IMG/VR virus record: IMGVR_UViG_3300013281_000008
Coordinates: 19,143-83,142 of that record
Strand: one strand, 5' to 3'
From: a virus
Taxonomy: Duplodnaviria; Caudoviricetes
DNA: 64,000 bases
The position numbers and the translations under genes were made by a program. Below are positions 412-32,168 of this stretch, piece by piece; the stretch's first letter is position 1, and each line of letters opens with the position of its first letter. The notes below the pieces were generated by a model. It was not told where the DNA came from. It made no database searches and worked only from the letters and a program-made list of their open reading frames with translations.

Positions 412-1138
412 CTTTCTTCTTATCCAATTCTTCTTTAACTTCTTTGATTGCTTCGTCTAATTCCGCCACACGACTGTTACGTTGAGAAGGTGTACCATGC
501 CAAGATAATTCCCAAAACACGCCATAAAGAATGTGGAAAAGGGAATAATGAACTTCATCATATTCTAGTAGAACTTTACCCGGAGTTACTTCCACTTTAT
601 GGTGTTCTTCATCGTAAACCGTTCCCTTTTGACCGAGCTTTAAGGGTAAATTAATCAATTCGTTAGCCGGAGTCAATGAAATGGCATAACCGCCTTTGGT
701 TCCTTCTTTGATAAATTCATCAGCAAGCCAAGTTCCCCAGCCATGAAACTGAGGAAAGAGACCTCCAGAAAGAATTCTAGGAACTTCTAAGAACTTATCT
801 TCCTTTTCACTGAACTCTTGGGTAATTCGAAGATCCCAATATAGTTCTAGATGATCAATCTCGGAAGCTTTCTTCTCCGTTGGAACATGAAGACCTTCGT
901 GAACAAGCTCATTGAATCCTCTCGGCATAATAAGAGAAAGGAAAGCTTCGTGTTTTTCTGCCAGAAGAAACAAATCTCGTAGGATTACATCATTATCAAG
1001 ATAACAGTTACTAGTGAGAAGCTTGGAAAGCTTAGACGTTTTATTCTCAGTGTAGAATTCACCAGCTTCAGAATTCCAGACGGTCATCATTATTTCACCA
1101 CCTTTGGTTATCTTGATATCTCCATCACCCAAGTTCAC
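404..1138 (-). CDS. hypothetical protein
   Basis: 244-aa ORF; GTG start overlaps the stop of mini-gene 1 (GTGA); SD AAGGAG is supplied by the mini-gene 3' cap. Confidence 0.75.
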   Translation of the reverse strand: MNLGDGDIKITKGGEIMMTVWNSEAGEFYTENKTSKLSKLLTSNCYLDNDVILRDLFLLAEKHEAFLSLIMPRGFNELVHEGLHVPTEKKASEIDHLELYWDLRITQEFSEKEDKFLEVPRILSGGLFPQFHGWGTWLADEFIKEGTKGGYAISLTPANELINLPLKLGQKGTVYDEEHHKVEVTPGKVLLEYDEVHYSLFHILYGVFWELSWHGTPSQRNSRVAELDEAIKEVKEELDKKKDD

Positions 1139-1254
1139 TTATTACTCTCCTTCAAATCCTCAGTAAGCTGATTCCCAAGCTGACTCATAAGCTGACTCTC
1201 AAGCTGACTCCTAAGCTGACCCTTCAACTCTTCACCTAGGAAATCAGAGTTCAT
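1135..1254 (-). CDS. QLxS tetrapeptide-repeat mini-gene, copy 1 (39 aa; not in the ORF track)
   Basis: Hand translation: MNSDFLGEELKGQLRSQLESQLMSQLGNQLTEDLKESNK*; overlaps the helicase stop and the next GTG. Confidence 0.75.
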   Translation of the reverse strand: MNSDFLGEELKGQLRSQLESQLMSQLGNQLTEDLKESNK

Positions 1255-2725
1255 ATTCTCTAACTTCTCCCGCAAAATGATCTTTGTATATCATAACACG
1301 TTTTCTAAGATGTTGTCCAAGAAATCTAGTATTTAGGAAATCAAAATCATAAATATAAGCCTTTTCCTTACCCGGATATAGTCTTACTGCGCGGCCTACA
1401 GATTGGACGAGCTTAATCTCCGACTTTCCGCCTCCTCCAATAATCAAGTGCTTTGTGGAGCGTATGTCTATACCTTCCCCGATGACAGTCGTGCCTATAA
1501 GTATATTATACTTCAATTCATTAAACCCGTCAATGGCCTCTTTAATGGCTTCTTTCTTATCATCTCCAGAAATATATTTGTTAGCATAACCCATATCAGT
1601 AAGCCAATCACTGATAAGATTACCAGCTTTATCTTTTCTGTCAACTAAAATAAGTATTTGTTCTCCCATTGGAATTGTTTTTACAATATCGGCTATTGTG
1701 TTTAAAAGCACCATGCCGCCGCAATAATTTAAATCATACTCTCTTTGATAATTTGGATGGGCTCTACCTGGAACTTTACAAATAATGTATTCTGTTGGAG
1801 TTATAAAACCGTCTTCAACTGCTTTTTTTGGAGGATACTCATATATTACATTTGATATAAAGCCATGTAACTCTAAAATTCTGGAATCATTTCTTAAAAA
1901 GGTCCCACTAAAGCCATACTTGTAGTATATATTATTAAAATCTTTGGCCAATTCAGTTGCTGTAAAAGCTCCCCAATGGTGGATTTCGTCCGCAATAACC
2001 ATATCTACATCGCTAATAAGTTTATCTAAATGACCCTTTTTTTGAAGGGATACCAAAGTCTGAATGTTTACAATTCTTATTGGGGGTAACTTGTTCTTAG
2101 TCTTTAAACCGGCTGTCCTAACCATTTTAACTTTTGGTCCAAATGCCAAAAACAATTCATCGTAAATCTGCTGTAAAAGGGCTAAAGAAGGCACTATAAC
2201 CAACGTATTCACTTCTTTTTGCTTTATAAGCTCAACAATACACCTGGTCTTACCAGATGCCACGGAAGCTGATATAACTCCCTTGGAATACTTATCAGTT
2301 TGCTCTAGAATTTCCTCTTGGTAATAGCGTAAAGCAGGAGGCTTATTACGCCATTTTAGTGTCAAGTAAGGGTTGGGCCTCACCCTAGTGTTGATCTCTT
2401 CATATAAGTCAAATTTGTGCGTTTTAAGGGTATTCTTAACACGGTATAACAACCCGGCCATGAAAGTATTGTTTTCGTTGAGTAAACAGACTACATCTTG
2501 GGGTAGTTCCGATAGCCTTTTTTTCAAAGCAAAGAAATACTTATGGTTCTTATACCGCTTAGCCCTCTCCATTTCGGAGTATATACGCTTACGTTCAAAC
2601 TGGGTTTCTTCATTCCTATAGGATAAATCCTTGGAAATGGCATCCATGATGTCTTTTGGGAACCCCTTAAGTTCACAAAAGGAATTGCCGATAATTATCT
2701 TGGCTTTAGTTGAAGGTTGGATCAT
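1244..2725 (-). CDS. Superfamily 2 DNA helicase (UvsW/XPB/type III Res-like)
   Basis: Walker A ASVASGKT, DEIHH, SGT, GEGIDI and QSVGRAVR motifs. Confidence 0.92.
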   Translation of the reverse strand: MIQPSTKAKIIIGNSFCELKGFPKDIMDAISKDLSYRNEETQFERKRIYSEMERAKRYKNHKYFFALKKRLSELPQDVVCLLNENNTFMAGLLYRVKNTLKTHKFDLYEEINTRVRPNPYLTLKWRNKPPALRYYQEEILEQTDKYSKGVISASVASGKTRCIVELIKQKEVNTLVIVPSLALLQQIYDELFLAFGPKVKMVRTAGLKTKNKLPPIRIVNIQTLVSLQKKGHLDKLISDVDMVIADEIHHWGAFTATELAKDFNNIYYKYGFSGTFLRNDSRILELHGFISNVIYEYPPKKAVEDGFITPTEYIICKVPGRAHPNYQREYDLNYCGGMVLLNTIADIVKTIPMGEQILILVDRKDKAGNLISDWLTDMGYANKYISGDDKKEAIKEAIDGFNELKYNILIGTTVIGEGIDIRSTKHLIIGGGGKSEIKLVQSVGRAVRLYPGKEKAYIYDFDFLNTRFLGQHLRKRVMIYKDHFAGEVREYEL

Positions 2726-3167
2726 CGCCTTTAGGTTTCTTAGGGAAAGGAACTAACTGACCTTTTGGTTTATTATCTTCAATAAGCTGATCTAAATCGT
2801 TCAAAAAGGATTCAGGCTCCATTTGAACAACGCCTTGGATTAGCTCAAAGTATTCTTCTTTAGCTTGCTCCCCATACAGGATCTCTCCGGTTTTATGGCT
2901 ATGGTGGAAATAAGAGCCAACTAGGAAGTCTGGGAACTGTTTACGCACAGTATCGATAAACTCCATAACTTCAATTCCTTTGGAAAGGAATGAACAACTA
3001 ACCACAACTCTATCTTCTTGAGCTTCTATGATAAAATCTACGCCACCCAAAGGAGGAGTTTTAATACAAATAGCGTAATGAGGGTTTTCTTTGGCTTCTG
3101 ACTGGTCTTCAACCATCAAAAGATTATCTGGAACGAATTCTTTTAGTTCTTTAAGAATTGTTTCCAT
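2706..3167 (-). CDS. hypothetical protein (start probably ATG 3167 rather than 3224)
   Basis: ORF track 2706..3224; the first 19 codons run into the repeat-rich non-coding tract. Confidence 0.65.
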   Translation of the reverse strand: METILKELKEFVPDNLLMVEDQSEAKENPHYAICIKTPPLGGVDFIIEAQEDRVVVSCSFLSKGIEVMEFIDTVRKQFPDFLVGSYFHHSHKTGEILYGEQAKEEYFELIQGVVQMEPESFLNDLDQLIEDNKPKGQLVPFPKKPKGDDPTFN

Positions 3168-4085: not shown

Positions 4086-4301
4086 TCATAAAACATTTGT
4101 TTCCTTTAAATCTTCAATAAGAAGATTTAGCTGACTCACAAGCTGATCCCTAAGCTGATCCCTAAGCTGACCCCTAAGCTGAATCCCAAGCTGATCATCA
4201 AGCTGACTCCAAAGCTGACTCCAAAGCTGATCCTCAAGCTGACTCCAAAGCGGTCTCCCAAGCTGACCTTTAATATCTTCTCCTAGAAAGTCTGCTTTCA
4301 T
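4086..4301 (-). CDS. QLxS repeat mini-gene, copy 2 (71 aa)
   Basis: MKADFLGEDIKG-(QLxx)n-LIEDLKE; ATGA overlap with the ATPase stop. Confidence 0.75.
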   Translation of the reverse strand: MKADFLGEDIKGQLGRPLWSQLEDQLWSQLWSQLDDQLGIQLRGQLRDQLRDQLVSQLNLLIEDLKETNVL

Positions 4302-5245
4302 TTGCGCTTCTTCCTAAACTTATTTAGCATAGACTTTTGGAAACCATATGGATCTTCATCGTCTTCACTATCTTCATATGGATCGTATTCATCATTTTCA
4401 GCGTCTAGATGAGCTTCCATCATTTGCCTAGCTTTCAGAATAGCATCTTCAAACTTAATACCAATACAAAGGACGCTAATAATAAGATCTTTAATATGGT
4501 CAATTGTAAAACCCTCGGTTTGCCGAACCCAGTATTCTACATCAATCTCATCTTTCACTTTAGCTTTAAGGAACTCCCTTCTAGCATTAGCATCTGGAGT
4601 AGGAACTTCAATCACAAGAGCAAATCTAGAAGGTCTATTTCGAATACGAGGAGGAATCCTATCTAAATAATTAGTTGTAGCGATGTAAAGAACATTCTGA
4701 ATCTGCATCTCACCATCTAGTAGGGAGAGGAAAGAGCCTTCGTCTCGCTCAAGCAACTTGTCCAGTTCTTCAAAGATAACTAGAATTCTTCTTTCTTGCT
4801 TCTCAATACTTCTGATAATATCCACAGCTTCAGTAAGTAGGCTGGGAGATGGACAGAAGAATACAATACTTCCGTTATTAACTTCTTTCTCAATTACTTT
4901 CGAAACTATACTAGTTTTTCCCGTCCCAGGTAAACCCCAAAGTAGAATTCCACGCTTGTAAACCATCCCATACTTAGCATAACGACTCTTAACATCTTCC
5001 GACCAAAACTGCTCAATCTCACTGATAATTGTAGAACCAACGAAACTGGGAAGTTCAACTAGGTCATCAGTCATACTGGACATATTCTTAAAGAACATCT
5101 CTCCAGACATATCTCGATGAATTTGATAAATACCAGCTGGGAACTCTTTTTTTCCAGGATAGTTCTTTCTTTTGAAATAGACTACTTCTCCGTTAGTGAG
5201 AAAGCCATCGTATTCCTTCTCAATTTTGTTTATAATTTTAGGCAT
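4298..5245 (-). CDS. AAA+ ATPase (BCS1/FtsH-type single module)
   Basis: GLPGTGKT Walker A, VIFEELD Walker B, TTNYLDRIPPRIRNRPSRF sensor-1/Arg-finger region. Confidence 0.9.
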   Translation of the reverse strand: MPKIINKIEKEYDGFLTNGEVVYFKRKNYPGKKEFPAGIYQIHRDMSGEMFFKNMSSMTDDLVELPSFVGSTIISEIEQFWSEDVKSRYAKYGMVYKRGILLWGLPGTGKTSIVSKVIEKEVNNGSIVFFCPSPSLLTEAVDIIRSIEKQERRILVIFEELDKLLERDEGSFLSLLDGEMQIQNVLYIATTNYLDRIPPRIRNRPSRFALVIEVPTPDANARREFLKAKVKDEIDVEYWVRQTEGFTIDHIKDLIISVLCIGIKFEDAILKARQMMEAHLDAENDEYDPYEDSEDDEDPYGFQKSMLNKFRKKRK

Positions 5246-5474
5246 TCTTCTTCTCCTTCAAATCCTCAATAAGCTGACTCCTAAGCTGATTCCCAAGCTG
5301 ATCCCTAAGCTGTCTCCAAAGCTGACTCATAAGCTGATCATAAAGCTGACTCCTAAGCTGATCCCAAAGCTGACTCATAAGCTGATCCCAAAGCTGACTC
5401 AAAAGCTGACTCCTAAGCTGACTCCTAAGCTGATAGTTCAAATCTTCACCTAGGAAATCCTGATTAGCTTTCAT
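5238..5474 (-). CDS. QLxS repeat mini-gene, copy 3 (78 aa)
   Basis: MKANQDFLGEDLNY-(QLxx)13-QLIEDLKEKKNA; ATGA overlap with the ung stop; supplies AAGGAG for the ATPase. Confidence 0.75.
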   Translation of the reverse strand: MKANQDFLGEDLNYQLRSQLRSQLLSQLWDQLMSQLWDQLRSQLYDQLMSQLWRQLRDQLGNQLRSQLIEDLKEKKNA

Positions 5475-6166
5475 GGAAGCCTCCAGTAGATAGTATCTTG
5501 TTTATTCTTTTTTAGAAATTCATTTACTTTAGAGAAGTGTTTACACCAAAAGAATCCCTTATGAGCAGACATCGGACTAGGATGTGCTGCTTCCAGTATT
5601 AAATGATTCGAATTGGTAATTAAATGCTTTTTCTGCTGAGCTAGTTTACCCCACAATACCCAGACAATAGGCTGTTTTAAATCATTTACAATACGAACAA
5701 CCTCGTCAGTGAATGTTTCCCATCCTAGATTCTTATGACTGAGAGGCTTTCCTTTCTCAACGGTTAGAATTGTATTAAGTAGGAATACTCCCTGAATGGC
5801 CCAGTAAGAAAGATCCCCACTTTTGTTTTCAATACCAGAATCAATCTTCAAGGCTCTAAAGATATTTGTTAAAGACTTAGGATGTTTTGCTGAATCTCTA
5901 ACGGAAAAAGCTAATCCGGTAGCCGATCCGTCGTGATAAGGATCTTGACCAAGAATAACAACCTTGATATTCCAGGGAGGACAAAGATCAAAAGCTTTAA
6001 ATACATCAAAGCTCATTGGATAGATTGTTGTCCCATTAAATCTCATTTCTTTAATCCTATTTTGCATTTCAATAAAGTAGGGTTTTTCAAACTCCACTCT
6101 AAGAAGATAATTCCAATTATTCTCCATCATTTTGTACATCTTGTAAACTTCTCTGTCTTTAACCAA
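5471..6166 (-). CDS. ung: Uracil-DNA glycosylase, family 1
   Basis: GQDPYH, GLAFSV, GVFLLNTILTV, LWG and HPSP motifs. Confidence 0.96.
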   Translation of the reverse strand: MVKDREVYKMYKMMENNWNYLLRVEFEKPYFIEMQNRIKEMRFNGTTIYPMSFDVFKAFDLCPPWNIKVVILGQDPYHDGSATGLAFSVRDSAKHPKSLTNIFRALKIDSGIENKSGDLSYWAIQGVFLLNTILTVEKGKPLSHKNLGWETFTDEVVRIVNDLKQPIVWVLWGKLAQQKKHLITNSNHLILEAAHPSPMSAHKGFFWCKHFSKVNEFLKKNKQDTIYWRLP

Positions 6167-6283: not shown

Positions 6284-6391
6284 TTATATAGACCCAGACC
6301 AAGACCAAGACCTAGACCCAGACCCAGACCTAGACCCAGACCCAGACCAATATTCTTTTCTGTATTTATTCTTTTGACTTCTTGGTAACAT
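6284..6391 (-). CDS. 35-aa peptide with a (GS/RS/WS) 6-bp repeat tail
   Basis: Hand translation MLPRSQKNKYRKEYWSGSGSRSGSGSRSWSWSGSI*; repeat GACCCA/GACCTA/GACCAA at 6291-6349. Confidence 0.6.
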   Translation of the reverse strand: MLPRSQKNKYRKEYWSGSGSRSGSGSRSWSWSGSI

Positions 6392-6924: not shown

Positions 6925-7221
6925 TTATTCATCTTTTAGTGCTTCATACCTAAGAGATAGAAGATTATGTTCCAGGCTTAGTCGTTTAGAATAGTTAATT
7001 CTGGCTATCCGTCTCAGAACATTCTTCGTAATATCCTCCCCAGTTTGATGTTCGATAACCTTAATTTGCATTCCTTCTTTTAAGAGATTGGTTATTTCAG
7101 TCAAGTTAATATAAGACCTTCGGTACTTTCGTTTGGCCGTTGGTGTCAAGTAAGTATCCTTCTCATAACCTTTTGCCCAATACTTTCGATTAGGATATCT
7201 CTTGATAACAATTGTATTCAT
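6925..7221 (-). CDS. PhaR/PHB-accumulation-regulator-like DNA-binding domain protein
   Basis: IKRYPNRK...YINLTEITNLLKEG..IKVIEHQTGEDITKNVL matches the PhaR N-terminal signature; ATG 7221 overlaps the upstream stop. Confidence 0.75.
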   Translation of the reverse strand: MNTIVIKRYPNRKYWAKGYEKDTYLTPTAKRKYRRSYINLTEITNLLKEGMQIKVIEHQTGEDITKNVLRRIARINYSKRLSLEHNLLSLRYEALKDE

Positions 7222-7418
7222 GATTTCTTTCCATGAACTAGGCAACCGAATTCACACTTAATAAAAGGTTGTTGTCTCATAGCAGCTTCTTCTCTTTTTC
7301 TAGCGAAGAACTTTTTCCAATCTTTATCTCGCATTTCTCGCTTAATCGTTAATAGCCCTTTTTTCTTCTTTAAAAAGCGTTTAGATCGTATTAGTTCCAT
7401 CGACTTTTCCTCCTTCAA
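7218..7418 (-). CDS. hypothetical basic protein
   Basis: 66-aa ORF in the coupled gene string. Confidence 0.5.
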   Translation of the reverse strand: MKEEKSMELIRSKRFLKKKKGLLTIKREMRDKDWKKFFARKREEAAMRQQPFIKCEFGCLVHGKKS

Positions 7419-7608
7419 TAACCTTAAGCATAGGCTCTACGATACACCATCCAAGTCTCGCCGTCTTATAAAAGGGCATCATAACTTCTTTTATTTCAAT
7501 TGAGAAAGAATAAGCTTCTCTTTCGTTTTTGAAAGTAAGACTTCTTTCTTCTTGGATATCTAAATCAACATAGAAGATTTTATATGTTACTCGCCAAATC
7601 TGATTCAT
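7381..7608 (-). CDS. hypothetical protein with LKVIEGGK motif
   Basis: ATGA-coupled to mini-gene 4, which supplies its SD. Confidence 0.65.
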   Translation of the reverse strand: MNQIWRVTYKIFYVDLDIQEERSLTFKNEREAYSFSIEIKEVMMPFYKTARLGWCIVEPMLKVIEGGKVDGTNTI

Positions 7609-7742
7609 TTATTTCTCTCCTTTAAATCTTCGTTAAGCTGACTCCAAAGCTGACTCATAAGCTGACCCCCAAGCTGATCCCTAAGCTGTCTCGCAAGCTG
7701 ATCCTTCAATTCTTCACCTAGGAAATCCTGATTAGCTTTCAT
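7605..7742 (-). CDS. QLxS repeat mini-gene, copy 4 (45 aa; not in the ORF track)
   Basis: MKANQDFLGEELKDQLARQLRDQLGGQLMSQLWSQLNEDLKERNK*; ATGA overlaps at both ends. Confidence 0.75.
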   Translation of the reverse strand: MKANQDFLGEELKDQLARQLRDQLGGQLMSQLWSQLNEDLKERNK

Positions 7743-7924
7743 AAAAACCTATAAATAAAGTGAATGATAGTTACAACTACTAGTAATTTAATAATGTCAT
7801 CGAGAATTTCATTAGTCGATTCCAATCGCTTAATTGAATTTCTAATTTCCTTGATTTTTTTATCAAACTTTCTTTGCTCGATCTTTTCTCGAAATTCATA
7901 ACAATCGACTTTAATATGTTCCAT
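7739..7924 (-). CDS. Small membrane-anchored coiled-coil protein
   Basis: C-terminal hydrophobic stretch IIKLLVVVTIIHFIYRFL. Confidence 0.6.
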   Translation of the reverse strand: MEHIKVDCYEFREKIEQRKFDKKIKEIRNSIKRLESTNEILDDIIKLLVVVTIIHFIYRFL

Positions 7925-8208
7925 TATAAATCCCTCTTTATAGTTTTTACGATCTCTTGAAACTTAACATATTGAATACGATTCATTAAATGCAGAGCAA
8001 TAAAATGAAGCTCATTTAATTCTTTAAGCATGTGTTTTTTAATGTTAGTACAAGCCTGTAGTCTTTCCATCGTTCTATGTAAACTACCAGTCTCTATTTC
8101 CTTTTCAGCTTCTTTTAGACGTTTAAAACGAGCGGTAAATGCTCTGAATCTATCAGCAAAGACTGCTTTCTGTTCATCATTAATTTGCATGTTAGATTTG
8201 GTTTTCAC
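7924..8208 (-). CDS. hypothetical protein
   Basis: GTG start with AAGGAG from mini-gene 5. Confidence 0.6.
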   Translation of the reverse strand: MKTKSNMQINDEQKAVFADRFRAFTARFKRLKEAEKEIETGSLHRTMERLQACTNIKKHMLKELNELHFIALHLMNRIQYVKFQEIVKTIKRDL

Positions 8209-8308
8209 TTTTCTCCTTCAAATCCTCAATAAGCTGACTCCTAAGCTGATTCCCAAGCTGATTACTAAGCTGACCCTTCAACTCTTCACCTAGAAAGTCA
8301 GAGTTCAT
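8192..8308 (-). CDS. QLxS repeat mini-gene, copy 5 (38 aa; not in the ORF track)
   Basis: MNSDFLGEELKGQLSNQLGNQLRSQLIEDLKEKSENQI*. Confidence 0.7.
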   Translation of the reverse strand: MNSDFLGEELKGQLSNQLGNQLRSQLIEDLKEKSENQI

Positions 8309-8595
8309 TTAATATCCTTCAAATCCTCAATAAGCTGATCCCAAAGCTGATCCCTAAGCTGACTCCCAAGCTCTTTCCCAAGCTGATCCTCAAGCTGACT
8401 CCCAAGCTCTTTCCCAAGCTGATCCTCAAGCTGACTCCAAAGCGGTCTCCCAAGCTGAATCTTAAGCGGACCCTCAAGCTGACTCCAAAGCTGACTCCAA
8501 AGCTGATCCTCAAGCTGACTCCAAAGCGGTCTCCCAAGCTGACTCCAAAGCTGATAGTTCAAATCTTCACCTAGGAAATCCTGATTAGCTTTCAT
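8305..8595 (-). CDS. QLxS repeat mini-gene, copy 6 (96 aa)
   Basis: 18 four-residue units between the caps; ATGA overlaps with the PilZ stop and copy 5. Confidence 0.75.
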   Translation of the reverse strand: MKANQDFLGEDLNYQLWSQLGRPLWSQLEDQLWSQLWSQLEGPLKIQLGRPLWSQLEDQLGKELGSQLEDQLGKELGSQLRDQLWDQLIEDLKDIK

Positions 8596-8990
8596 TTAAT
8601 ATCTCCGAAGAATTCTTCGATAATCCGCTTTGAAACTTTGATAATCTGACTATTTCTCATATAAACTAGATAAGCTTCATATATCTTTTGAGTATTTTGG
8701 CTCATATCACCAAGTATAACTGCAAACCCTCTTACTTTTGATTGCTTTCTAGAGTCTCTCCAGTGAACTCGACTTACAACTCCATCTAAAGCAAGCTTTC
8801 CAAGATCTCCTGGTAGTATAACGTCTACTCTACACCATTCTTTAGGTGTTGGTAACTCCCCATTTGTTTCAAAGAACATTCCTTTATTACTTAGATCTTT
8901 TAACTTCAAATCTCCAGATGATGTTTCCCAAGCAACTGACAGTCTATCATTCACAATTGGGATTCGAATGTCTGATCTCTTTTCTTTCAT
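8592..8990 (-). CDS. PilZ-domain protein (putative c-di-GMP binding)
   Basis: RxxxR (RSDIR) and DxSxxG (DLSNKG) motifs followed by a beta-barrel pattern. Confidence 0.85.
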   Translation of the reverse strand: MKEKRSDIRIPIVNDRLSVAWETSSGDLKLKDLSNKGMFFETNGELPTPKEWCRVDVILPGDLGKLALDGVVSRVHWRDSRKQSKVRGFAVILGDMSQNTQKIYEAYLVYMRNSQIIKVSKRIIEEFFGDIK

Positions 8991-8991
8991 T

Positions 8992-9384
8992 TTACTTCTC
9001 TAAGTAATAGTAGGTCTTCGAGTCTGGATCAAAAGTATAGTCCTTATCTATAATAGTCTCTTTACAATTAGTGCCTTTAAATTGGCCTGCATATTTGTAA
9101 GTCCCATCTTGAAACAAAAAATAAGCATTTCGAAAACCGTCTAATTTTAAAGCACATTCTTGGGTGAAATCTTTAAGGAATTGAATAATTTGATCGTCGC
9201 AACCGCCAATTGCAATTAAACTATCCTCATGGACGCCTTTAAAACAACCGGATACGTCCTTAACTTGAAATCCATCGTTAAGTAAGTATTTTCGGCCATT
9301 TTCATGGGCTTTTAGATTAGTAGCTTCACAATTCTGCGCGTTATATGCACTAATAATATAAGTAACTGGATAAAATGGTCTCAC
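8992..9384 (-). CDS. Probable S-adenosylmethionine lyase (T3 SAMase/Svi3-3-like)
   Basis: ISAY..NC...N...H...L......V..VSGCFKGVHEDS...F.QECAL...YTFD pattern parallels T3 SAMase (VSAF..LC...N...H, GCYRE..EEK, EQDCVL). Confidence 0.65.
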   Translation of the reverse strand: MRPFYPVTYIISAYNAQNCEATNLKAHENGRKYLLNDGFQVKDVSGCFKGVHEDSLIAIGGCDDQIIQFLKDFTQECALKLDGFRNAYFLFQDGTYKYAGQFKGTNCKETIIDKDYTFDPDSKTYYYLEK

Positions 9385-9409
9385 GTCGTACTCCTCCCAT
9401 CGTTTTAAT

Positions 9410-9799
9410 TTAGTCTACTACAGGACGGATCATCTCGTCAAACATGCCCTTCTCACGGACCTGTCCAATTCGATAATCTCCCACTGGAACTGGCACTTTA
9501 TCGTGTTCATTATGTACAAGGTTTGTTTCCTTGAACACTCGCAAATAGGTTACATTTGAAGTAGGATCTCGAAATACCATAAAATTCCGTGAATCCTTAT
9601 TCTTTTCAGGCGCTCCATGAACTTTAGCCATTTGGTCGACATTTTCACCTTCATCTACAAGTCGGTGTGCATGTCCCGTATGCTCACCATGAGCCAATAC
9701 ATAGTTCCTAGGATCTTCTACAACTCCGCTTGGGATTGCATCGATCTTATAGATTAGTACATCGCCTTGTTCTCTGATTTCTCGTGCTTCATCTGACAT
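9410..9799 (-). CDS. Conserved QGDV...GE.TGH.H protein (usual DUF6745 neighbour)
   Basis: EQGDVLI, LAHGEHTGHAHRL, HNEH motifs; ATG 9799 has SD AGGAG (the ORF track start at 9880 is probably too long). Confidence 0.75.
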   Translation of the reverse strand: MSDEAREIREQGDVLIYKIDAIPSGVVEDPRNYVLAHGEHTGHAHRLVDEGENVDQMAKVHGAPEKNKDSRNFMVFRDPTSNVTYLRVFKETNLVHNEHDKVPVPVGDYRIGQVREKGMFDEMIRPVVD

Positions 9800-9813
9800 T
9801 TTAGTTCTCCTTT

Positions 9814-10695
9814 TTAAGTTAAAATTATAGGTTCCAAATAGTTCGGCAGATTCATTCTCCACGCAAGCGCCGCCTTGCAAGTCTCAATTGTGTCTTCCAC
9901 TCTCTCATAATGATAGGTGTTAGTCAAGCTGGGATTCTTCATACATAAGACCTTCCTAACGACTCCATCTCCAAAGTCCATTGAATAGAGTTTGTAGTCG
10001 CACCAAGCTTTTCTATCGTCTTTCCATTCATCTAGTAACTTAGAATTAGTATCCTTTAAAAGCCGTTCTACTGGAATAAGCTTTAATGCTTCTCGTCTGA
10101 TATCGACATTCTGCTCACCAAGAATCTTCTTTACGTCGAGCTTTTCTTTAGGAGTTTCAATAACATAAGCTGGCACTCGAATACCATTTAAAGCATAGAT
10201 ACCCCAGCCATCACGGTATTTAATAGCCATCTTTCCCTCATTATGTAGCCGTCCGTCTTTCATTGAGACAAACTCCGGTCTATCGCAAATAATGGCAGCT
10301 TTTTCATAGAAATAGACCCAACCGCAACTTTTAGCTAGTTTGGACCATTGTTCTAGTAATTTACTTTGATCTTTGGTATACTTCACGCCAATTTGCTCGC
10401 AAAATTGATAGAAAGCAATCCAATAGTTATCTTGTTGACCCCAGAAATAAGTCCCATTGTAAACAGCGGCCTTATTTCCTTTGGCTTTATTTATCAATTT
10501 TTCAGCTTCTAGAGGCGATGAAACCTTGATAATTTCAGGCTCGGGTTTTTCTAACCGTCTATAGAATTCTTTGATAATTCTTTCAGCCACTTCGAAATTG
10601 GCGGGTTCTGTCGATAGACCAACTTCAAGTGCCTTTTGTCTGAATTCAATTAGATCTTGTTCCTGTTGTTTTGTTAATGATTCAATTTTCTTCAT
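9814..10695 (-). CDS. DUF6745-like conserved phage protein
   Basis: GQQDNYWIAFY, SCGWVYFYE..IICDRP, GRLHNEG.MAIKYRDGWGIYALNGIRVP, EQNVDIRRE motifs recalled for this family. Confidence 0.7.
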   Translation of the reverse strand: MKKIESLTKQQEQDLIEFRQKALEVGLSTEPANFEVAERIIKEFYRRLEKPEPEIIKVSSPLEAEKLINKAKGNKAAVYNGTYFWGQQDNYWIAFYQFCEQIGVKYTKDQSKLLEQWSKLAKSCGWVYFYEKAAIICDRPEFVSMKDGRLHNEGKMAIKYRDGWGIYALNGIRVPAYVIETPKEKLDVKKILGEQNVDIRREALKLIPVERLLKDTNSKLLDEWKDDRKAWCDYKLYSMDFGDGVVRKVLCMKNPSLTNTYHYERVEDTIETCKAALAWRMNLPNYLEPIILT

Positions 10696-10906
10696 TTTCT
10701 TTCTCCTTCAAATCTTCTTCAAACTGATTCCTAAGCTGCCACCCAAGCTGACTCCCAAGCTGATTCCCAAGCTGACTCCCAAGCTGATTCCCAAGCTGAC
10801 TCCCAAGCTCTTTCCCAAGCTGATTCACAAGCTGACTCCCAAGCTGAATCTTAAGCTGACTCACAAGCTGACCCTTCAATTCTCCACCTAGAAAGTCAGA
10901 GTTCAT
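10682..10906 (-). CDS. QLxS repeat mini-gene, copy 7 (74 aa)
   Basis: MNSDFLGGELKG-(QLxx)12-QFEEDLKE; supplies the SD for the DUF6745-like gene. Confidence 0.75.
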   Translation of the reverse strand: MNSDFLGGELKGQLVSQLKIQLGSQLVNQLGKELGSQLGNQLGSQLGNQLGSQLGWQLRNQFEEDLKEKENEEN

Positions 10907-11220
10907 TTAATATCCTTCAAATCCTCAATAAGCTGATTCCCAAGCTGACTCCCAAGTTGACTCCCAAGCTGATCCCTAAGCTGACTCCCAAGCTCTTTCC
11001 CAAGCTGATCCTCAAGCTGACTCCAAAGCTGATCCTCAATCTGACTCCAAAGCGGTCTCCCAAGCTGAATCTTAAGCGGACCCTCAAGCTGACTCCAAAG
11101 CTGACTCCAAAGCTGATCCTCAAGCTGACTCCAAAGCGGTCTCCCAAGCTGACTCCAAAGCTGACTCTTCAATTCTTCACCTAGGAAATCCTCTTTTTTC
11201 AATCGGCTTGCTTTCGGCAT
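10903..11220 (-). CDS. QLxS repeat mini-gene, copy 8 (105 aa, altered 5' cap)
   Basis: MPKASRLKKEDFLGEELKS-(xLxx)19-QLIEDLKDIK; near-duplicate of copy 6. Confidence 0.7.
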   Translation of the reverse strand: MPKASRLKKEDFLGEELKSQLWSQLGRPLWSQLEDQLWSQLWSQLEGPLKIQLGRPLWSQIEDQLWSQLEDQLGKELGSQLRDQLGSQLGSQLGNQLIEDLKDIK

Positions 11221-11426
11221 ATTTGAACCCTCACAATTCCGGGTGTGTTAAGAGCCTTCTTGATCGTATGTCTCATTATAACATCAAACGTGGCAGTCTC
11301 AGGATCAAAAAACAACGTAATGCTATTCTCCCGATCTACTTCACATGAGCTTACCACATGCACGCTCTTTCGATAAGCTACATCATAAATTTCAATTGGA
11401 GCAACTGGCGGCATATCAAATATCAT
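11199..11426 (-). CDS. hypothetical protein
   Basis: 75-aa ORF with SD GGAGG. Confidence 0.6.
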   Translation of the reverse strand: MIFDMPPVAPIEIYDVAYRKSVHVVSSCEVDRENSITLFFDPETATFDVIMRHTIKKALNTPGIVRVQICRKQAD

Positions 11427-11593
11427 TTTTCATTCCTCCATTTCATAGCTTCAATGTTATATTCCATTTGCCTAATCATATATTCAAAGTCTAGCATGAA
11501 TTCTTCTAAAGCGATAGAGGCCCTAATATGATTTTCTTTAACTCTGTCTTGATAATCCTTAATAAGTTCTGGATATTCTTTAATGATTTTCAT
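11423..11593 (-). CDS. hypothetical protein (56 aa; not in the ORF track)
   Basis: MKIIKEYPELIKDYQDRV...KWRNEK*; ATGA-coupled at both ends. Confidence 0.6.
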   Translation of the reverse strand: MKIIKEYPELIKDYQDRVKENHIRASIALEEFMLDFEYMIRQMEYNIEAMKWRNEK

Positions 11594-11883
11594 AGTTTAA
11601 TATCCTTCAAATCCTCAATAAGCTGATCCCTAAGCTGACTCCCAAGCTGACTCCCAAGCTGACTCACAAGCTGACTCCAAAGCTGACTCCTAAGCTGACT
11701 CACAAGCTGACTCCCAAGCTGATTCCCAAGCTGATCCCTAAGCTGTCTCCAAAGCTGACTCATAAGCTGATCATAAAGCTGACCTCTAAGCTGATTCCCA
11801 AGCTGACTCACAAGCTGACCTCTAAGCTGATCCCAAAGCTGACCCTTCAATTCTCCACCTAGGAAATCCTGATTAGTTTTCAT
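11590..11883 (-). CDS. QLxS repeat mini-gene, copy 9 (97 aa)
   Basis: MKTNQDFLGGELKG-(QLxx)18-QLIEDLKDIKL; abuts the upstream TAA. Confidence 0.75.
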   Translation of the reverse strand: MKTNQDFLGGELKGQLWDQLRGQLVSQLGNQLRGQLYDQLMSQLWRQLRDQLGNQLGSQLVSQLRSQLWSQLVSQLGSQLGSQLRDQLIEDLKDIKL

Positions 11884-12099
11884 TTAATCTCCCATAAAGT
11901 CAGCAGCCGAAATCTGCCGGTCCATCCAAGCTTCGTACAATACATCTTCGCAACTCTCTTGAAGCTCGTCCAGCTCTTCATCAGTCAAATCTACCATATT
12001 ATCAGTATAAAACCCACTGCTAAAGTAAATATCCTCCATCTCACGAGAATTACTATCGAATTCCACTTCAATCTCTCGACCTTTAAATTTCATTAGCAT
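11884..12099 (-). CDS. Small acidic early protein
   Basis: 71 aa, very acidic; strong SD AAGGAGG. Confidence 0.7.
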   Translation of the reverse strand: MLMKFKGREIEVEFDSNSREMEDIYFSSGFYTDNMVDLTDEELDELQESCEDVLYEAWMDRQISAADFMGD

Positions 12100-12124
12100 T
12101 AGATCCTCCTTGACTTACAACTCC

Positions 12125-12153
12125 ATTATAGATTGACTACAAATATCTAACAA
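12125..12153 (-). promoter_or_regulatory. Sigma70-type promoter TTGTTA-N17-TATAAT
   Basis: Perfect -10 with 17-nt spacing, upstream of the AAGGAGG-ATG at 12099. Confidence 0.65.
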
Positions 12154-12188
12154 CTACCACTAATAACTTTGTCTTTCATATAAATAAA

Positions 12189-12737
12189 TTATATAGCCGG
12201 TATATCAACTAAGGATACATCCCCATATATATTAACACACACTACCGGCGGATAAACACGGGATTCTCCAATATATGCATTGATAATTGCCGCCCGTTCT
12301 TCAATAGTACTATATTCAGTCCCACTAGCTATCGGTTCGATTTGATTATAATTATTTGACCAAAAAATATTGCCGGTGTCGGCGTCGATACCGATGAATT
12401 CCCCCATTAATACCACGAAGCGCTCATTTTTAACGTCAAGGGTAATAAAGCCTTCAGCGATTAAATAACGTTCTAATTGCTCAATATTACCATGACTTAA
12501 TAGCTTCACGTCAACGCAGGTCCATTTATATAATATACCCTGTTCGTTCAATCCATACTCTCTTGTATTTTCGAGTGATTCTAAAGCTTGAATTAAGTTT
12601 AAATCTTCTATGAATACCTTATTCCATTCATCTTCAAGTTTTTGTTGTATTGGCATCAGTTGGGTATTCTTTTCAACAACGGCCTTTCTCATTTCCATTT
12701 CCAACCCCTTAATTTTCATTTTCTGTAATGCCTTCAT
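12189..12737 (-). CDS. hypothetical protein
   Basis: 182-aa ORF, TAATG-coupled. Confidence 0.7.
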   Translation of the reverse strand: MKALQKMKIKGLEMEMRKAVVEKNTQLMPIQQKLEDEWNKVFIEDLNLIQALESLENTREYGLNEQGILYKWTCVDVKLLSHGNIEQLERYLIAEGFITLDVKNERFVVLMGEFIGIDADTGNIFWSNNYNQIEPIASGTEYSTIEERAAIINAYIGESRVYPPVVCVNIYGDVSLVDIPAI

Positions 12738-12940
12738 TATTTCTTGCCTCCTTCGATAACCTTCAATTTAAAGTCTACACCAGATTTATAAGAATTGTCT
12801 AGATCAGCCATAAGTTGTTGAATTTCCAGTCCTATTTTATCTAGCAAAAATACATTATCTTGCACTTCCCCGGCGAACATTAATAACATATTGATTTTGT
12901 TATTGATTTCGGTAACTTCCTTATTAGTTAAGATATTCAT
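12737..12940 (-). CDS. hypothetical protein ending LKVIEGGKK
   Basis: 67-aa ORF, TAATG-coupled. Confidence 0.65.
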   Translation of the reverse strand: MNILTNKEVTEINNKINMLLMFAGEVQDNVFLLDKIGLEIQQLMADLDNSYKSGVDFKLKVIEGGKK

Positions 12941-13134
12941 TACTTCTTTCCTTTCAGAAAGCGAACTCGGTAAGCCTTACTTTCCAAGGTTTTTCCATCT
13001 AAAACGTCATTACCAGCAACTTCTAAGTTATAGGTATTACTGATGATATCAGCCAATAATACAGCATCGTTAGCCCCAACTTCATCCATTCCAACCACTT
13101 CAGCATCTTTATATCTAATTAAAGCTTTATACAT
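12940..13134 (-). CDS. hypothetical protein
   Basis: 64-aa ORF with SD GGAGG. Confidence 0.65.
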   Translation of the reverse strand: MYKALIRYKDAEVVGMDEVGANDAVLLADIISNTYNLEVAGNDVLDGKTLESKAYRVRFLKGKK

Positions 13135-13145
13135 AATCCCTCCGA

Positions 13146-13301
13146 TTAAGCGAACATTCCGAAGCTAGCACCCACTCTAAATACGATACCAGCTTTTTCT
13201 AGCTTTAGGAACTGTTCCCAACCAACCAAAACGTCTTTAAATAAAGGAATCTTATAGTTCCCTTCCCGTTGATACATCTTAACTCTAACGTAACTTTCCA
13301 T
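13146..13301 (-). CDS. hypothetical protein (51 aa; not in the ORF track)
   Basis: MESYVRVKMYQREGNYKIPLF...GMFA*. Confidence 0.55.
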   Translation of the reverse strand: MESYVRVKMYQREGNYKIPLFKDVLVGWEQFLKLEKAGIVFRVGASFGMFA

Positions 13302-13302
13302 A

Positions 13303-13461
13303 TTATACTCCGTCCATCCAATCAACCAAAGCTTCCCCGATCCTAATCACCAGAATCACCGGCAGTGCAATCAATCCTATCACATAATCCATATTCAAAT
13401 ACTCTTGCAAATCCCATACCAACTCTCTTATTCCCTCCCCATTATAAACATTCCCAATCAT
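13303..13461 (-). CDS. Small membrane protein (52 aa; not in the ORF track)
   Basis: SD GAGG; hydrophobic VIGLIALPVILVIRI. Confidence 0.55.
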   Translation of the reverse strand: MIGNVYNGEGIRELVWDLQEYLNMDYVIGLIALPVILVIRIGEALVDWMDGV

Positions 13462-13469
13462 TCTAACCT

Positions 13470-14545
13470 CTTATGTATAAAATCCCTCTAATCCCAATAA
13501 ACATACCCCTTACAATAAATGCTCATATTAAACAATACATGTCTAATATAGACCAATAATTGCCGTACTACATAAGATTACATTGGTTTAGATCTAGGAT
13601 TGGTCATTGAATGATGGATTGGCTTTTGAAAAGCCCATACTTATAGTTTCCATAGCCTTCGAAATTGCATTCCCTAGCTATCGAAAAAGCCCATACTTAT
13701 AGCTTCCTAAACTACCGAAAAAGCATACTTTTCGAAGAAAAGCCCCATCTGCCACCTTCCCCGCTTCCACCCGACCTGCTCGGTAACGCTCTAATAGCCC
13801 CGCCATTCAACTTTGGCCGTTCCTTGCACCCAAGGTATCCCCCCGCTCCTAATCTTTCAATATAGGGCATCCTGCTGCGTTCTAATCCCGCTACAACTTG
13901 CATACCTATAGCCCACTATGCAATCCGGTCAAGCTTCCCTCGGCTCCCCCTGCAAGTTCTATGCCAACAAACCTGCTAATCCGCCCGCTTACTTTGGCAC
14001 ACTTCTTGCACCCCCCTGGTCAGCTAGACTTGGCACGAATCTTGCATCTCTCAACTGCTCCCCTACTCTGCATAAAATGCATACCCACGCCTTCTCTCTG
14101 CATTATATACATATTCGCATCCTAGCACGATTCTTGCACCCCCTGCAATTTCCATACCAAGAGACCCCCTTGCTGGGGACAAGCCACCTCCCATGTTGGC
14201 ACAGTTATTGCTATATATGAGAGCACACCAACTTACTTTCCTGTATAATTATTAAAACCTCCAGCCATCCATCTTTCCCCTAAACTACCCCCCTACCAAA
14301 TGGTCGATTTAACCCCTTATAAGCCACCTGGGAGCAAAATTATTTCCCTAATTTTCGATAATTATAGGCACCTAGAAAGCAGCCAACTGGTACTTTATAA
14401 TGTGCCACTCCTTGAATCCCTTACCTCCCGAAAATGTAGGTCTGGGGTGGCACCAGTTGGGCGGTTTCAAGGCTCTGGGCTAACCCTGCTTTAAACATTA
14501 TTTTTCCTTTTAATTTTCCTGCAATTATTACTCCATTGCCGATAA
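13470..14545. other. About 1.1-kb non-coding, C-rich/G-poor region with direct repeats (candidate genome end, pac site or origin)
   Basis: No credible ORF; AAAAGCCCATACTTATAG at 13629-13646 and 13685-13702; recurring CTTGCACCC; C-runs. Confidence 0.55.
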
Positions 14546-29859: not shown

Positions 29860-30428
29860 ATGAAACCATATGGAATTATCTATAAAGTTACTAATAAATC
29901 CAATGGAAAGGTCTACATCGGGCAGACTGTTCAAGGTCTGAAACAACGTAAAAACAAACATATTTATACTTCTAAACGACAGATAACAAATTTGCATTAC
30001 ATCATGCTATAAATAAATATGGAAAAGAAAGCTTTGATTTTGAGACTATTTGTTCTTGCTTTGACATTGATGAGCTAAATAAACAAGAACAACATTTTAT
30101 CGAACAATACAAATGTATCGCACCCAATGGCTATAACTTGAAAAATGGTGGCTATAATAAAAAGTATAGTGAAACGACCATTCGTAAAATGAAAGAAATA
30201 GCGAGTAAACGAGGCCCTAATCATCCATCGACTTTAGCTCTTTTAGATAGAAGTAAAAACTATCAAAAACAAAAAGGTTGTATTGGTAATGTTAGACGTT
30301 TTATTCAAGCCGAAGATGGGACGATTTATACAGGTGTTACTGAATTAGCTAAAAAGCTCGACACAACGGCTTCTTCAATACATAATTCTATTAAAAAAAG
30401 AGGCAAATATATTTGCCTATTATTTTAA
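29860..30428 (+). pseudogene. GIY-YIG homing endonuclease, frameshifted near 29970-29980
   Basis: YGIIYKVTNKSNGKVYIGQT in frame 1 stops at 30012; the domain continues in another frame (ALHHAINKYGKESF...ELNKQEQHFIEQY...GYNLKNGG). Confidence 0.8.
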
Positions 30429-30620: not shown

Positions 30621-30776
30621 ATGTCAGGTGCAAATATTGTCAGCACGCTGTCTGGTCTGTTCAAAGAACAGTACAGTGACAAGCTCATGGATCTAGTTCC
30701 AGATGGCGTCAAGATGCTTCGAATGGTTCCATTCGTAGAATCTAGTAAAGAAATCGGTAATTTTTACCATCAGCCT
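30621..30776 (+). CDS. Major capsid protein, exon 1 (52 codons)
   Basis: SD AAGGA; MSGANIVSTLSGLFKEQYSDKLMDLVPDGVKMLRMVPF...GNFYHQP, then an in-frame TAA inside the intron. Confidence 0.85.
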
Positions 30777-31034
30777 TCTGTTTAAGCATAGGGCCCCTTA
30801 TTAGAAATGATAAGGTAAACACTCTTTGAATTGCTGGAAACTCCAAAATAGGGACAATCAGCAGCCAAGCTGTAGAAATACAGAAGGTTCAACGACTAGG
30901 TCATATGACCGTACCGTCAAGCGACGGGAAGTGGAGAGCATCCGAAAGGATGAAGAGATAGTCTAATCTTGCAGGTAACTGCAAGCTGCTCGAAAGAGCG
31001 GACAAGATGTAGCGAATCTTGTTGAATATAAATG
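30777..31034 (+). ncRNA. Group I self-splicing intron (258 nt, no internal ORF)
   Basis: Exon ends in U with a U.G wobble in P1; terminal G; P AATTGCTGGAAA (30829), Q AATCAGCAG (30856), R GTTCAACGACTA (30887), S AAGAGATAGTC (30953); P7 GACTA/TAGTC; IGS AAGCAT pairs with 3' exon GTGCTT; GNRA hairpins. Confidence 0.93.
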
Positions 31035-32168
31035 GTGCTTTTGGCACAAGAACACGGACTCACGTACGCCCCGGCGAACGGAACGGCCTTCTCCCTAGGA
31101 GATGCCATTGCTGCTCGTCTTCAAGATGCTCAAATCGCTGGCGCTCAACTTCTGTTGCGCTCCTCGATCAGCTATGAAGCCGCTGCCCGTGCGTCGAACG
31201 ATAAGAAAGCTTTCGTGAAAGCGACCAGCCTTCTTGTCGAAAACATGCTCAACTCAATCAGCAAGCGATTGGAAATCTCGCTTCTCTACGGACAATCAGG
31301 CCTTGCCTCGTCTGTAGCGACGACTAACCAATCTGCTACTTCTACCCGTCTGGAAGTTCCTGCGGCTTCTTGGGCCCCTGGAATCTGGTCTGGATCGGAA
31401 AACGCTGTTTTGGTTGCGTACAACGGTACAACCCGTCTGAACGCTGCGGATACCGCTGGTTACACGGTTACTTCGGTTGATCTTCTCAACCGATATGTAT
31501 TCGTGTCTGCATCTAGTGCTGATATTACGGCGATTGACGCTGCTTCTGGTAGCATCACGCTGTACTTCCTCAGTTCAGTGGTTGGTTCCGGTGGAGGTCA
31601 AACCTTTAACGAAATGGCCGGTCTTGATAAGATCATTACGAACACTGGCTCGCTCTTCAACATCAACGCTTCTACGTATGCGTTGTGGAAAGGTAACTCC
31701 TACAGCGCCGGATCTGCGTCACTTAGCTTGACAAAGATCTTGAACGCCGTGGCGTTTGCCGTGGAACGTGGTCTTGATGAAGATGTAGTTTGCATGATGT
31801 CTGCAAAGACGTGGGCAAACATTGCTTCTGATCAAGCTGCTCTTCGTATCTATGATCAAAGCTACAAGCCCTCGAAGCTTGAAAACGGTGCTTCTGAGTT
31901 CGTGTTCAACGGACAAAATGGTCGCATCGAAATCCACACTTCAATCTACGTCAAAGAAGGTGAAGCATTCGTGTTTCCTCTTAAGAGACTTAAGAGAATT
32001 GGAGCTATGGATGTTAGCTTTAAAATGCCTGGTCGTAGCCAACAAGAAGACTTCTTCTTGGAGCTATCTAATGCTGCTGGGTACGAGCTCAGATGTTATA
32101 CTGATCAAGCAATCTTCTGTGATTCGCCTGCGAAACTCGTGAAGATTACGAACATCGTTAATAGCTAA
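31035..32168 (+). CDS. Major capsid protein, exon 2 (spliced product 429 aa)
   Basis: Splicing gives ...YHQP|VLLAQEHGLTYA...; HK97-like layout after the scaffold; strong terminator downstream. Confidence 0.85.
   Translation: MLLAQEHGLTYAPANGTAFSLGDAIAARLQDAQIAGAQLLLRSSISYEAAARASNDKKAFVKATSLLVENMLNSISKRLEISLLYGQSGLASSVATTNQSATSTRLEVPAASWAPGIWSGSENAVLVAYNGTTRLNAADTAGYTVTSVDLLNRYVFVSASSADITAIDAASGSITLYFLSSVVGSGGGQTFNEMAGLDKIITNTGSLFNINASTYALWKGNSYSAGSASLSLTKILNAVAFAVERGLDEDVVCMMSAKTWANIASDQAALRIYDQSYKPSKLENGASEFVFNGQNGRIEIHTSIYVKEGEAFVFPLKRLKRIGAMDVSFKMPGRSQQEDFFLELSNAAGYELRCYTDQAIFCDSPAKLVKITNIVNS

Follow-up and report, generated by a model that had tools for sequence, protein, structure and literature searches.

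Free mini-genes encoding homologues of the repeat tract missing from a DUF6745 protein in a sludge phage: a candidate split accessory module

Introduction

Can a repeat tract that many members of a phage protein family carry within a single gene also exist as a set of separate genes? The question is raised by the 64,000-nucleotide stretch of phage DNA analysed here (the window), which comprises positions 19,143 to 83,142 of the IMG/VR record IMGVR_UViG_3300013281_000008 (Caudoviricetes). Positions 9410-10906 of the window contain a gene of the DUF6745 family (the core gene), a partner gene downstream of it and, directly upstream, a small gene built of tetrapeptide units of the type xxQL (a mini-gene), behind which a second one follows. 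The original prediction, made from the sequence alone, held that the repeat module of the DUF6745 protein had been moved out of the core gene. We find that the mini-proteins match, at the level of sequence profiles, the internal tract of other DUF6745 proteins, that the tract occurs in the sampled phages either inside the core gene or as separate genes, and that it may act in trans together with the core.

The record is an 83,142-bp virus genome, 100% complete by CheckV, and the window is its last 64 kb. Its source is an uncultured phage; the stretch is present in four bioreactor-sludge DNA runs, all from a single study, and in no listed RNA run. A blastn search with window positions 7000-14000 against a phage collection gave no match. 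In a literature search on DUF6745 we found no paper that mentions the family, and the split arrangement reported below is undescribed in the literature.

Results

The DUF6745 protein lacks the internal tract of its relatives

The core protein matches Pfam PF20530 with 71.4 bits (cut-off 27, E = 8e-20) over residues 86-284, in agreement with the family assignment of the original prediction. It is also matched by phrog_31813, and a search of the whole genome found a single DUF6745 copy. In an alignment of 18 homologues the residues S60, P61, G86, W92 and F98 are invariant. The N-terminal helical domain ends at the SP motif (S60 P61), which is followed after about 25 residues by the FWGQQDNYW..FY motif that includes G86, W92 and F98. 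These 25 residues contain no period-4 repeat, so that the site was correctly described as empty.

The claim that relatives often carry a tetrapeptide insert at this site is likewise borne out by the homologues. A period-4 tract is present in 31 of the 64 homologues returned by a sequence search, always between the SP and the GQxD..W..FY motifs, with units of the core types xxQV, xxSV, xxQL, xxSL and xxNL (MW202476 is an example). The internal tract is thus typical of DUF6745 but does not define it, i.e. about half of the members have it, and 13 of the 14 closest homologues of the window core (38-51% identical) are without it. In the AlphaFold2 model of the core, which has a predicted local distance difference test (pLDDT) score of 88.6, the sole low-confidence segment is formed by residues 83-86; it is located in the loop between helices 61-72 and 86-101, where the relatives hold the tract.

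The mini-proteins are homologous to the internal tract

A hidden Markov model was built from only the nine mini-proteins encoded in the window and was searched against 1.84 billion representative proteins, which gave 1021 matches at E <= 0.001. Among the 149 newly returned top matches, 147 also fit the profile of the repeat-less DUF6745 core. We note that this second profile was built from repeat-less cores, and the homology test is therefore not circular. Pfam searches found DUF6745 in all six long matches that were scanned, while four short ones had no DUF6745 match. The matching segments fall at residues ~70-300 of the DUF6745 proteins, i.e. at the position of the tract. A structural search of the ESM Atlas with the 105-residue mini-protein points in the same direction, the top-ranked neighbour being a DUF6745 cluster (template-modelling score 0.54 by query). 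We conclude from these comparisons that mini-proteins and internal DUF6745 tract are homologues. The conserved caps that flank the repeats of the mini-proteins behave differently: among the 149 tract-bearing proteins, an N-cap-like motif was found in none and a C-cap-like motif in five.

Two further searches were carried out. A pattern search derived from the mini-protein alignment gave 54 matches, none of which was confirmed by tblastn, probably as a result of low-complexity masking. A reverse search at the DNA level (CAGCTT at 12-nt spacing, five times) returned 80 loci, 30 of them internal DUF6745 tracts. Most of the 36 free loci are unrelated simple repeats read in the QL frame, and only two, L091 and L127, look like genuine mini-genes; the available parts of their contigs (42% and 10% complete, respectively) contain no DUF6745 gene.

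The tract is found either inside the core gene or as separate genes

The distribution of the two arrangements was investigated in 80 viral loci, each comprising a DUF6745 relative and at most 10 kb of sequence to either side of it. The loci were classified by a script, and 69 remained after merging near-identical cores. Mini-genes on the same strand within +/-10 kb were found at 12 of the 21 repeat-less cores (9 without) and at none of the 48 tract-bearing cores (Fisher p = 3.3e-8), which supports the association between repeat-less cores and free mini-genes that had been predicted. Repeat arrays initially picked up in the flanks of tract-bearing cores proved to be something else, namely glycine-rich GYG/GDG genes, poly-Asp stretches or a second DUF6745 with a tract. 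In this sample the tract is therefore shown to reside inside the gene or in separate genes, never in both.

The mini-genes of other phages have units with the cores QV, SL, AL, NV and RV, in which the period of four is kept, and they usually have an acidic, EDL-like end; they are chained mainly to each other. Examples are also found on the contigs of the closest homologues of the window core: in L085 an xxSL mini-gene that had not been called separates the core gene from the partner gene, and in L087 a mini-gene begins at the end of the contig.

Two observations on the flanks are given here in their own right. Glycine-rich GYG/GDG/GSG repeat genes lie within 10 kb of DUF6745 in L015, L019, L023, L029, L071, L072 and L078; these are unrelated viral contigs, mostly with tract-bearing cores, so that a second kind of low-complexity gene is found there. 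In L056 (record G010, 38,234 bp, 100% complete), DUF6745 lies at the first bases and a tract-like open reading frame (ORF) within 250 bases of the other end; circular permutation of the genome would make them neighbours.

The history of the two arrangements was followed on an unrooted maximum-likelihood tree of the C-terminal domain (last 210 residues, 65 rows, quick method, LG+G4). Parsimony requires eight changes of the split state, and the starred branches alone force at least five changes to or from it; the labels are more clustered on the tree than in shuffles. Switches between the internal and the split state are thus shown to be recurrent. The window core belongs to a starred clade of 11 rows, seven of which are tract-bearing. 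Its nearest relative is L012, whose xxQL tract is internal and has G, W or R at x1. As the window core stands beside this tract-bearing relative, the split in the window is an independent event within an xxQL lineage. In an unrooted tree the loss of the tract from the core with a gain of free genes is not told from the reverse; the internal state is simply the commoner and more widely spread one. The prediction of an externalised module is thus upheld with regard only to the place of the tract outside the core gene, for which the homology, the mutual exclusivity and the tract of L012 speak.

Ten mini-genes are built into the operons of the phage

The original prediction had noted two mini-genes upstream of the core gene, the nearer of which overlaps its start by 14 nt. 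This was confirmed, and a scan of the whole genome raised the number of xxQL mini-genes to ten, all on the minus strand, 38-105 residues long and spread over ~28 kb. Nine are inside the window, between 1135 and 11883 (Table 1), and the tenth is at genome positions 2861-3070. The encoded proteins follow one plan: Met and a few residues, an N-cap DFLGE[ED]LK, 6-21 xxQL units, a C-cap [IE]EDLK[ED] and a short tail. The frame, the start and both caps are kept in all ten copies, which contain whole 12-nt units.

The 3' ends of all ten mini-genes read GAGGATTTGAAGGAG/T; these codons specify EDLKE/D and include a ribosome-binding site, GAGGA or AAGGAG. In most cases the ATG or GTG of the next gene overlaps the stop region or sits within it. 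Since the C-cap codons hold the ribosome-binding site and the next start overlaps the stop, the mini-genes are built into operons by translational coupling, and the conservation of the C-cap may in part be a nucleotide-level constraint. The downstream genes include the AAA ATPase gene, DUF6745, further mini-genes and several unknowns.

The mini-gene pairs at 8192-8595 and 10682-11220 are paralogous, and the junction sequence around the ATGA is identical in both; the likeness of the sequences suggests that one pair arose by duplication of the whole segment not long ago. Logan contigs from two of the four sludge runs join position 10871 to 11619 with four extra letters (TCCC), skipping the 105-residue mini-gene and two small ORFs. 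This join may stem from recombination between arrays, or it may be an artefact of assembling the repeats. The contigs of the sludge runs break off at every array and are cross-linked through paralogous caps, and no reliable differences in repeat number were found among the contigs of the four runs.

Variation is concentrated at two positions of the repeat unit

The unit core is exactly CAGCTT in 109 of the 131 units. At third codon positions the commonest base is found in 83-95% of the units, in comparison to only 46-66% at unit nucleotides 1, 2, 4 and 5, i.e. at codon positions 1 and 2 of x1 and x2. The residues that predominate are G, W, R, E and K at x1 (codons NGG and NAG) and S, D, G, N and R at x2. 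The tracts and mini-genes of other phages show the same pattern of variation with phage-specific frozen codons. The pattern is consistent with young units that multiply through slippage or recombination, diversity being maintained at both x positions.

We searched the 83-kb genome for a reverse transcriptase and obtained no RVT_1 match, whereas the control genomes did match. Together with the fact that the variable bases are not adenine-specific, this excludes a diversity-generating retroelement as the source of the variation.

A dipeptide repeat of a similar kind is seen elsewhere in the window. A 35-residue ORF at 6284-6391 (minus strand) ends in WSGSGSRSGSGSRSWSWSGS and is built of a 6-nt unit, NGG TCT (Tandem Repeats Finder, 6290-6348, 9.8 copies), in which variation of the first base of NGG gives W, G or R, as at x1 of the mini-genes.

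The partner gene accompanies DUF6745 with and without the tract

A QGDV...GE.TGH.H protein had been predicted as the usual neighbour of DUF6745. Such a gene is indeed present (phrog_27831): it starts 24 bases past the stop of the core gene, with an AAAGGAG ribosome-binding site 7 nt before the ATG at 9790. The same partner lies directly beside DUF6745 on the same strand in 44 of the 80 viral loci. This adjacency is seen both with and without a tract in the core (28 of 52 tract-bearing loci, 16 of 28 without a tract). The pair is also found in Microcystis phage Ma-LMM01 (gp174/gp175) and in the Mycobacterium abscessus prophage prophiGD102-1 (gp38/gp37). According to its AlphaFold2 model (pLDDT 84.2) the partner is an all-beta protein.

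Comparison with known systems

The tract-bearing DUF6745 proteins prophiGD102-1 gp38 and UOF77368 of MW202476 belong to the same core family as the window protein and have the same partner next door. The internal tract of prophiGD102-1 gp38 consists of dozens of xxQL units, i.e. the unit type of the window mini-genes, and in the tract of L012 the W/G/R residues at x1 are encoded by NGG codons as they are in the window. The difference is that in the window the tract is absent from the core and present as ten capped, separate genes with their own starts. Ma-LMM01 gp174 is 27% identical to the window core, and gp175 is a partner protein with the same motifs, but gp174 has a non-repetitive insert at the tract site and the order of the two genes is reversed. 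Ma-LMM01 and its Microcystis-phage relatives are the only isolated lytic phages in the phage collection that have the DUF6745-partner pair.

A different family offers a parallel for the mode of action, Tweety gp54 being the only phage protein of comparable design that has been studied. In gp54 of mycobacteriophage Tweety (with Che8 gp57 and PMC gp51) the repeat number tunes a counter-defence against Phrann gp29/gp30 (PMC2884959, PMC9262239), and for Tweety gene 54 it was described in 2007 that third codon positions are invariant while the first and second vary (PMC2884959). Like the window mini-genes, gp54 combines two constant with two variable residues and has G/W at one position; like the DUF6745 tracts, it varies at codon positions 1 and 2 and differs in repeat number between phages. 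In contrast to the window, its tract is internal, and its function was shown by escape mutants. Tweety gp54 was also considered as a member of DUF6745 and rejected, as it has no Pfam match and an hhalign probability of 0.07% against the core profile. In the lack of homology the comparison concerns a possible mode of action and not membership. Diversity-generating retroelements, such as that of Bordetella phage BMP-1 (VR2), likewise produce localised hypervariability in a phage accessory gene; such an element was rejected for this phage, whose genome lacks a reverse transcriptase; a template/variable repeat pair is absent as well, and the variation is not specific to adenines.

Gene neighbourhood

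The window from 1 to ~18,000 is occupied by minus-strand non-structural genes, the identified ones of which are listed in Table 1 together with the mini-genes. Directly downstream of the partner gene there is a gene of the SAM (S-adenosylmethionine) lyase family. SAM lyase is an anti-restriction type of enzyme.

Two features outside this region were noted. A group I catalytic intron was detected at 30767-30985 on the plus strand (Rfam RF00028, 94.8 bits, gathering score 50); it lies in the plus-strand late-gene block between the ORFs 30138-30428 and 31032-32168. The ORF at 36914-39205 (plus strand, 763 residues) has arrays of a 66-nt (22-residue) repeat at 37424-37566 and 38349-38569 and looks tail-fibre-like.

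Table 1. Positions of the core gene, its partner, the mini-genes and other identified genes within the window (aa, amino acids).
Feature	Position	Strand	Remarks
xxQL mini-gene, 39 aa, 6 units	1135-1254	-	GTGA coupling to ORF 404-1138
Helicase	1244-2725	-	
xxQL mini-gene, 71 aa, 12 units	4086-4301	-	
AAA ATPase	4298-5245	-	
xxQL mini-gene, 78 aa, 14 units	5238-5474	-	Tail holds ribosome-binding site and start of AAA ATPase 4298-5245
Uracil-DNA glycosylase	5471-6166	-	
xxQL mini-gene, 45 aa, 7 units	7605-7742	-	ATGA coupling to ORF 7381-7608
xxQL mini-gene, 38 aa, 6 units	8192-8308	-	
xxQL mini-gene, 96 aa, 19 units	8305-8595	-	88% identical paralogue of 10903-11220
PilZ-domain protein, borderline	8592-8990	-	21.7 bits against cut-off 22.5; downstream of DUF6745 partner
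SAM lyase family protein	8992-9384	-	Pfam PF23780, E = 7e-12
Partner, 126 aa	9410-9790	-	QGDV...GEHTGHAH...HNEH; phrog_27831
DUF6745 core, 293 aa, without internal tetrapeptide tract	9814-10695	-	Pfam PF20530
xxQL mini-gene, 74 aa, 14 units	10682-10906	-	Last 14 nt (10682-10695) overlap DUF6745 start
xxQL mini-gene, 105 aa, 21 units	10903-11220	-	Chained by ATGA to 10682-10906
xxQL mini-gene, 97 aa, 20 units	11590-11883	-	ATGA coupling to ORF 11423-11593

Discussion

A model of a three-part module

The model to which we lean, by a small measure only, is an accessory module of three parts: the DUF6745 core, the small beta-rich partner with its histidine motifs, and the ten free mini-proteins. 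The mini-proteins would be the detached form of the variable tract that normally lies between the N-terminal helical domain and the DUF6745 domain. They would bind to the repeat-less core, or to the core-partner complex, and in this way supply the tract in trans, so that one core could be combined with ten different tracts. The units would turn over by slippage or recombination with variety maintained at the two x positions, and the target of the module would be a host component met at an early stage of infection, where it might serve as a counter-defence that can be tuned. The early-gene setting beside the SAM lyase gene fits a role in host takeover or counter-defence. A more far-reaching version, which we regard as possible but doubtful, is that core and partner assemble with any of the ten exchangeable mini-proteins into combinatorial complexes that are quickly re-tuned by repeat slippage, i.e. 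a protein-level cassette system for host takeover or counter-defence that phages would have reached at least five times independently by detaching an internal repeat.

Action in trans on the core had been one of the proposals of the original prediction, and it was approached by co-folding. The alignment of the core and that of the adjacent 74-residue mini-protein were submitted as one job, with three runs and three controls. The runs scored 0.64, 0.33 and 0.50 (median 0.50) and all three controls 0.00; the runs agree in at least 83% of the contacts, and the pLDDT of the mini-protein is at least 67. Of 80 solved complexes 58 reached the pass mark, as did 2 of 110 mismatched pairs. We note, however, that scores up to 0.60 include just 7 of the 80 solved complexes and both of the passing mismatches. 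The co-fold model thus lends weak support to binding between the mini-protein and the core, which is plausible.

Several findings weigh against the three-part model. By its calibration, a co-fold pass such as this one is more often wrong than right unless binding is already likely. Only two of the ten mini-genes adjoin the core, and the other eight are each coupled to a different downstream gene. The chain of the core is continuous, and the arrangement is therefore not an ordinary gene fission in which the pieces need reassembly. No convincing match in the PDB was found either for the core model (Foldseek best E = 0.17; wide VIA-align search, best Z 4.7 with a root-mean-square deviation of 3.3 Å over 73 residues) or for the partner (Foldseek best E = 0.36; VIA-align Z 3.3, 4.2 Å, 90 residues). 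Moreover, some repeat-less cores seem to manage without mini-genes. When the whole contigs of eight such bare records were searched, tract-like ORFs were found far from the core in two, and two others are small fragments (6% and 18% complete). The remaining four, which are 79-100% complete, have no tract-like ORF on the whole contig, and one record with a tractless core and no detectable mini-gene has terminal repeats and is 100% complete. It seems that a core without any tract exists, or that the QL-based profile misses the tract type of these phages. As to function, a PADLOC search with the core, the partner and one mini-protein gave no match, and a counter-defence role is suggested by analogy only, the analogue being the non-homologous Tweety gp54.

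Alternative explanations

Some of these findings would also be expected if the mini-proteins worked in the DUF6745 pathway without binding to the core, for example by acting directly on a host target as free decoys, sponges or amphipathic peptides. In that case the tract would be the active part in either form, tethered or free, and there would be no need for a scaffold in the shape of the core. The dispersal of the mini-genes over ~28 kb with only two beside the core, the phages that keep a repeat-less core without mini-genes, the two incomplete contigs (42% and 10%) that have genuine xxQL mini-genes and no DUF6745 on the available part, and the weak co-fold support are all compatible with this. 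Nevertheless, that the mini-genes in the sampled loci accompany repeat-less cores and exclude the internal tract fits a single functional unit, the caps that are special to the free forms suggest an added role in docking or expression, and the co-fold score of 0.50 lies above all three controls; we therefore consider an action without binding rather unlikely. The operon structure raises the question of whether the peptides matter at all, as the mini-genes could mainly be leader cistrons whose translation brings ribosomes to the downstream gene and whose unit number tunes expression. The ribosome-binding sites in the C-cap codons, the starts in the stop region and the variety of the downstream genes speak for such leaders. 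What makes them improbable is that the same tract is an internal protein segment in many phages, that x1 and x2 vary at codon positions 1 and 2 while the silent sites are frozen and the fourth residue is hydrophobic, that other phages exchange the unit core (QV, SL, AL, NV, RV) and yet keep the period of four, and that elsewhere the mini-genes are chained mainly to each other.

The original prediction also offered frameshift fusion of the mini-gene to DUF6745, and donor cassettes, which would be silent and copied into the core by recombination or by a retroelement. The 14-nt overlap of the adjacent mini-gene with the core in a different frame is what fusion would start from, and the 10871-11619 join found in two samples could reflect recombination between arrays, although the joined contigs may just as well be an assembly artefact of the repeats. 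Neither proposal is supported by closer inspection of the locus. Fusion needs a +1 shift confined to a stretch of 15 nt, bounded by a TGA in the DUF6745 frame on one side and by the stop of the mini-gene on the other, where there is no recognisable shift site; it would place the tract at the N-terminus instead of at residue ~75-85, and eight of the ten mini-genes are not beside DUF6745. Cassettes would need an acceptor tract, which the window core lacks, and the genome has neither a reverse transcriptase nor adenine-specific variation. We regard both as very improbable. Still less credible is the idea that the repeats act as DNA or RNA, i.e. as binding sites or recombination hot spots, the open frames being a by-product of stop-free 12-nt repeats. 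It is true that all six frames are open across the arrays and that the assemblies break at every array, but a single frame has the start, the N-cap, the C-cap and whole 12-nt units in all ten copies, the variation tracks the codon positions, and the profile matches are specific to one protein family.

Implications

DUF6745 is widespread in phages and prophages; nearly all of the best among the 1021 matches of the mini-protein profile belong to it. Its hypervariable tract is a separable module, present in cis or, outside the core gene, as a family of genes in several copies. Specificity probably resides in the tract, with the core and the histidine-motif partner as the constant machinery. Detached tracts also account for many "orphan" low-complexity micro-ORFs in phage genomes and for the assembly breaks at these sites. 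Cultured models are available for further experiments in the form of prophiGD102-1 (gp37/gp38) and Ma-LMM01 (gp174/gp175). If the analogy with Tweety gp54 holds, the DUF6745 module would represent a second class of phage counter-defence tuned by repeats, far more widespread than the first and equipped with a library of its own.

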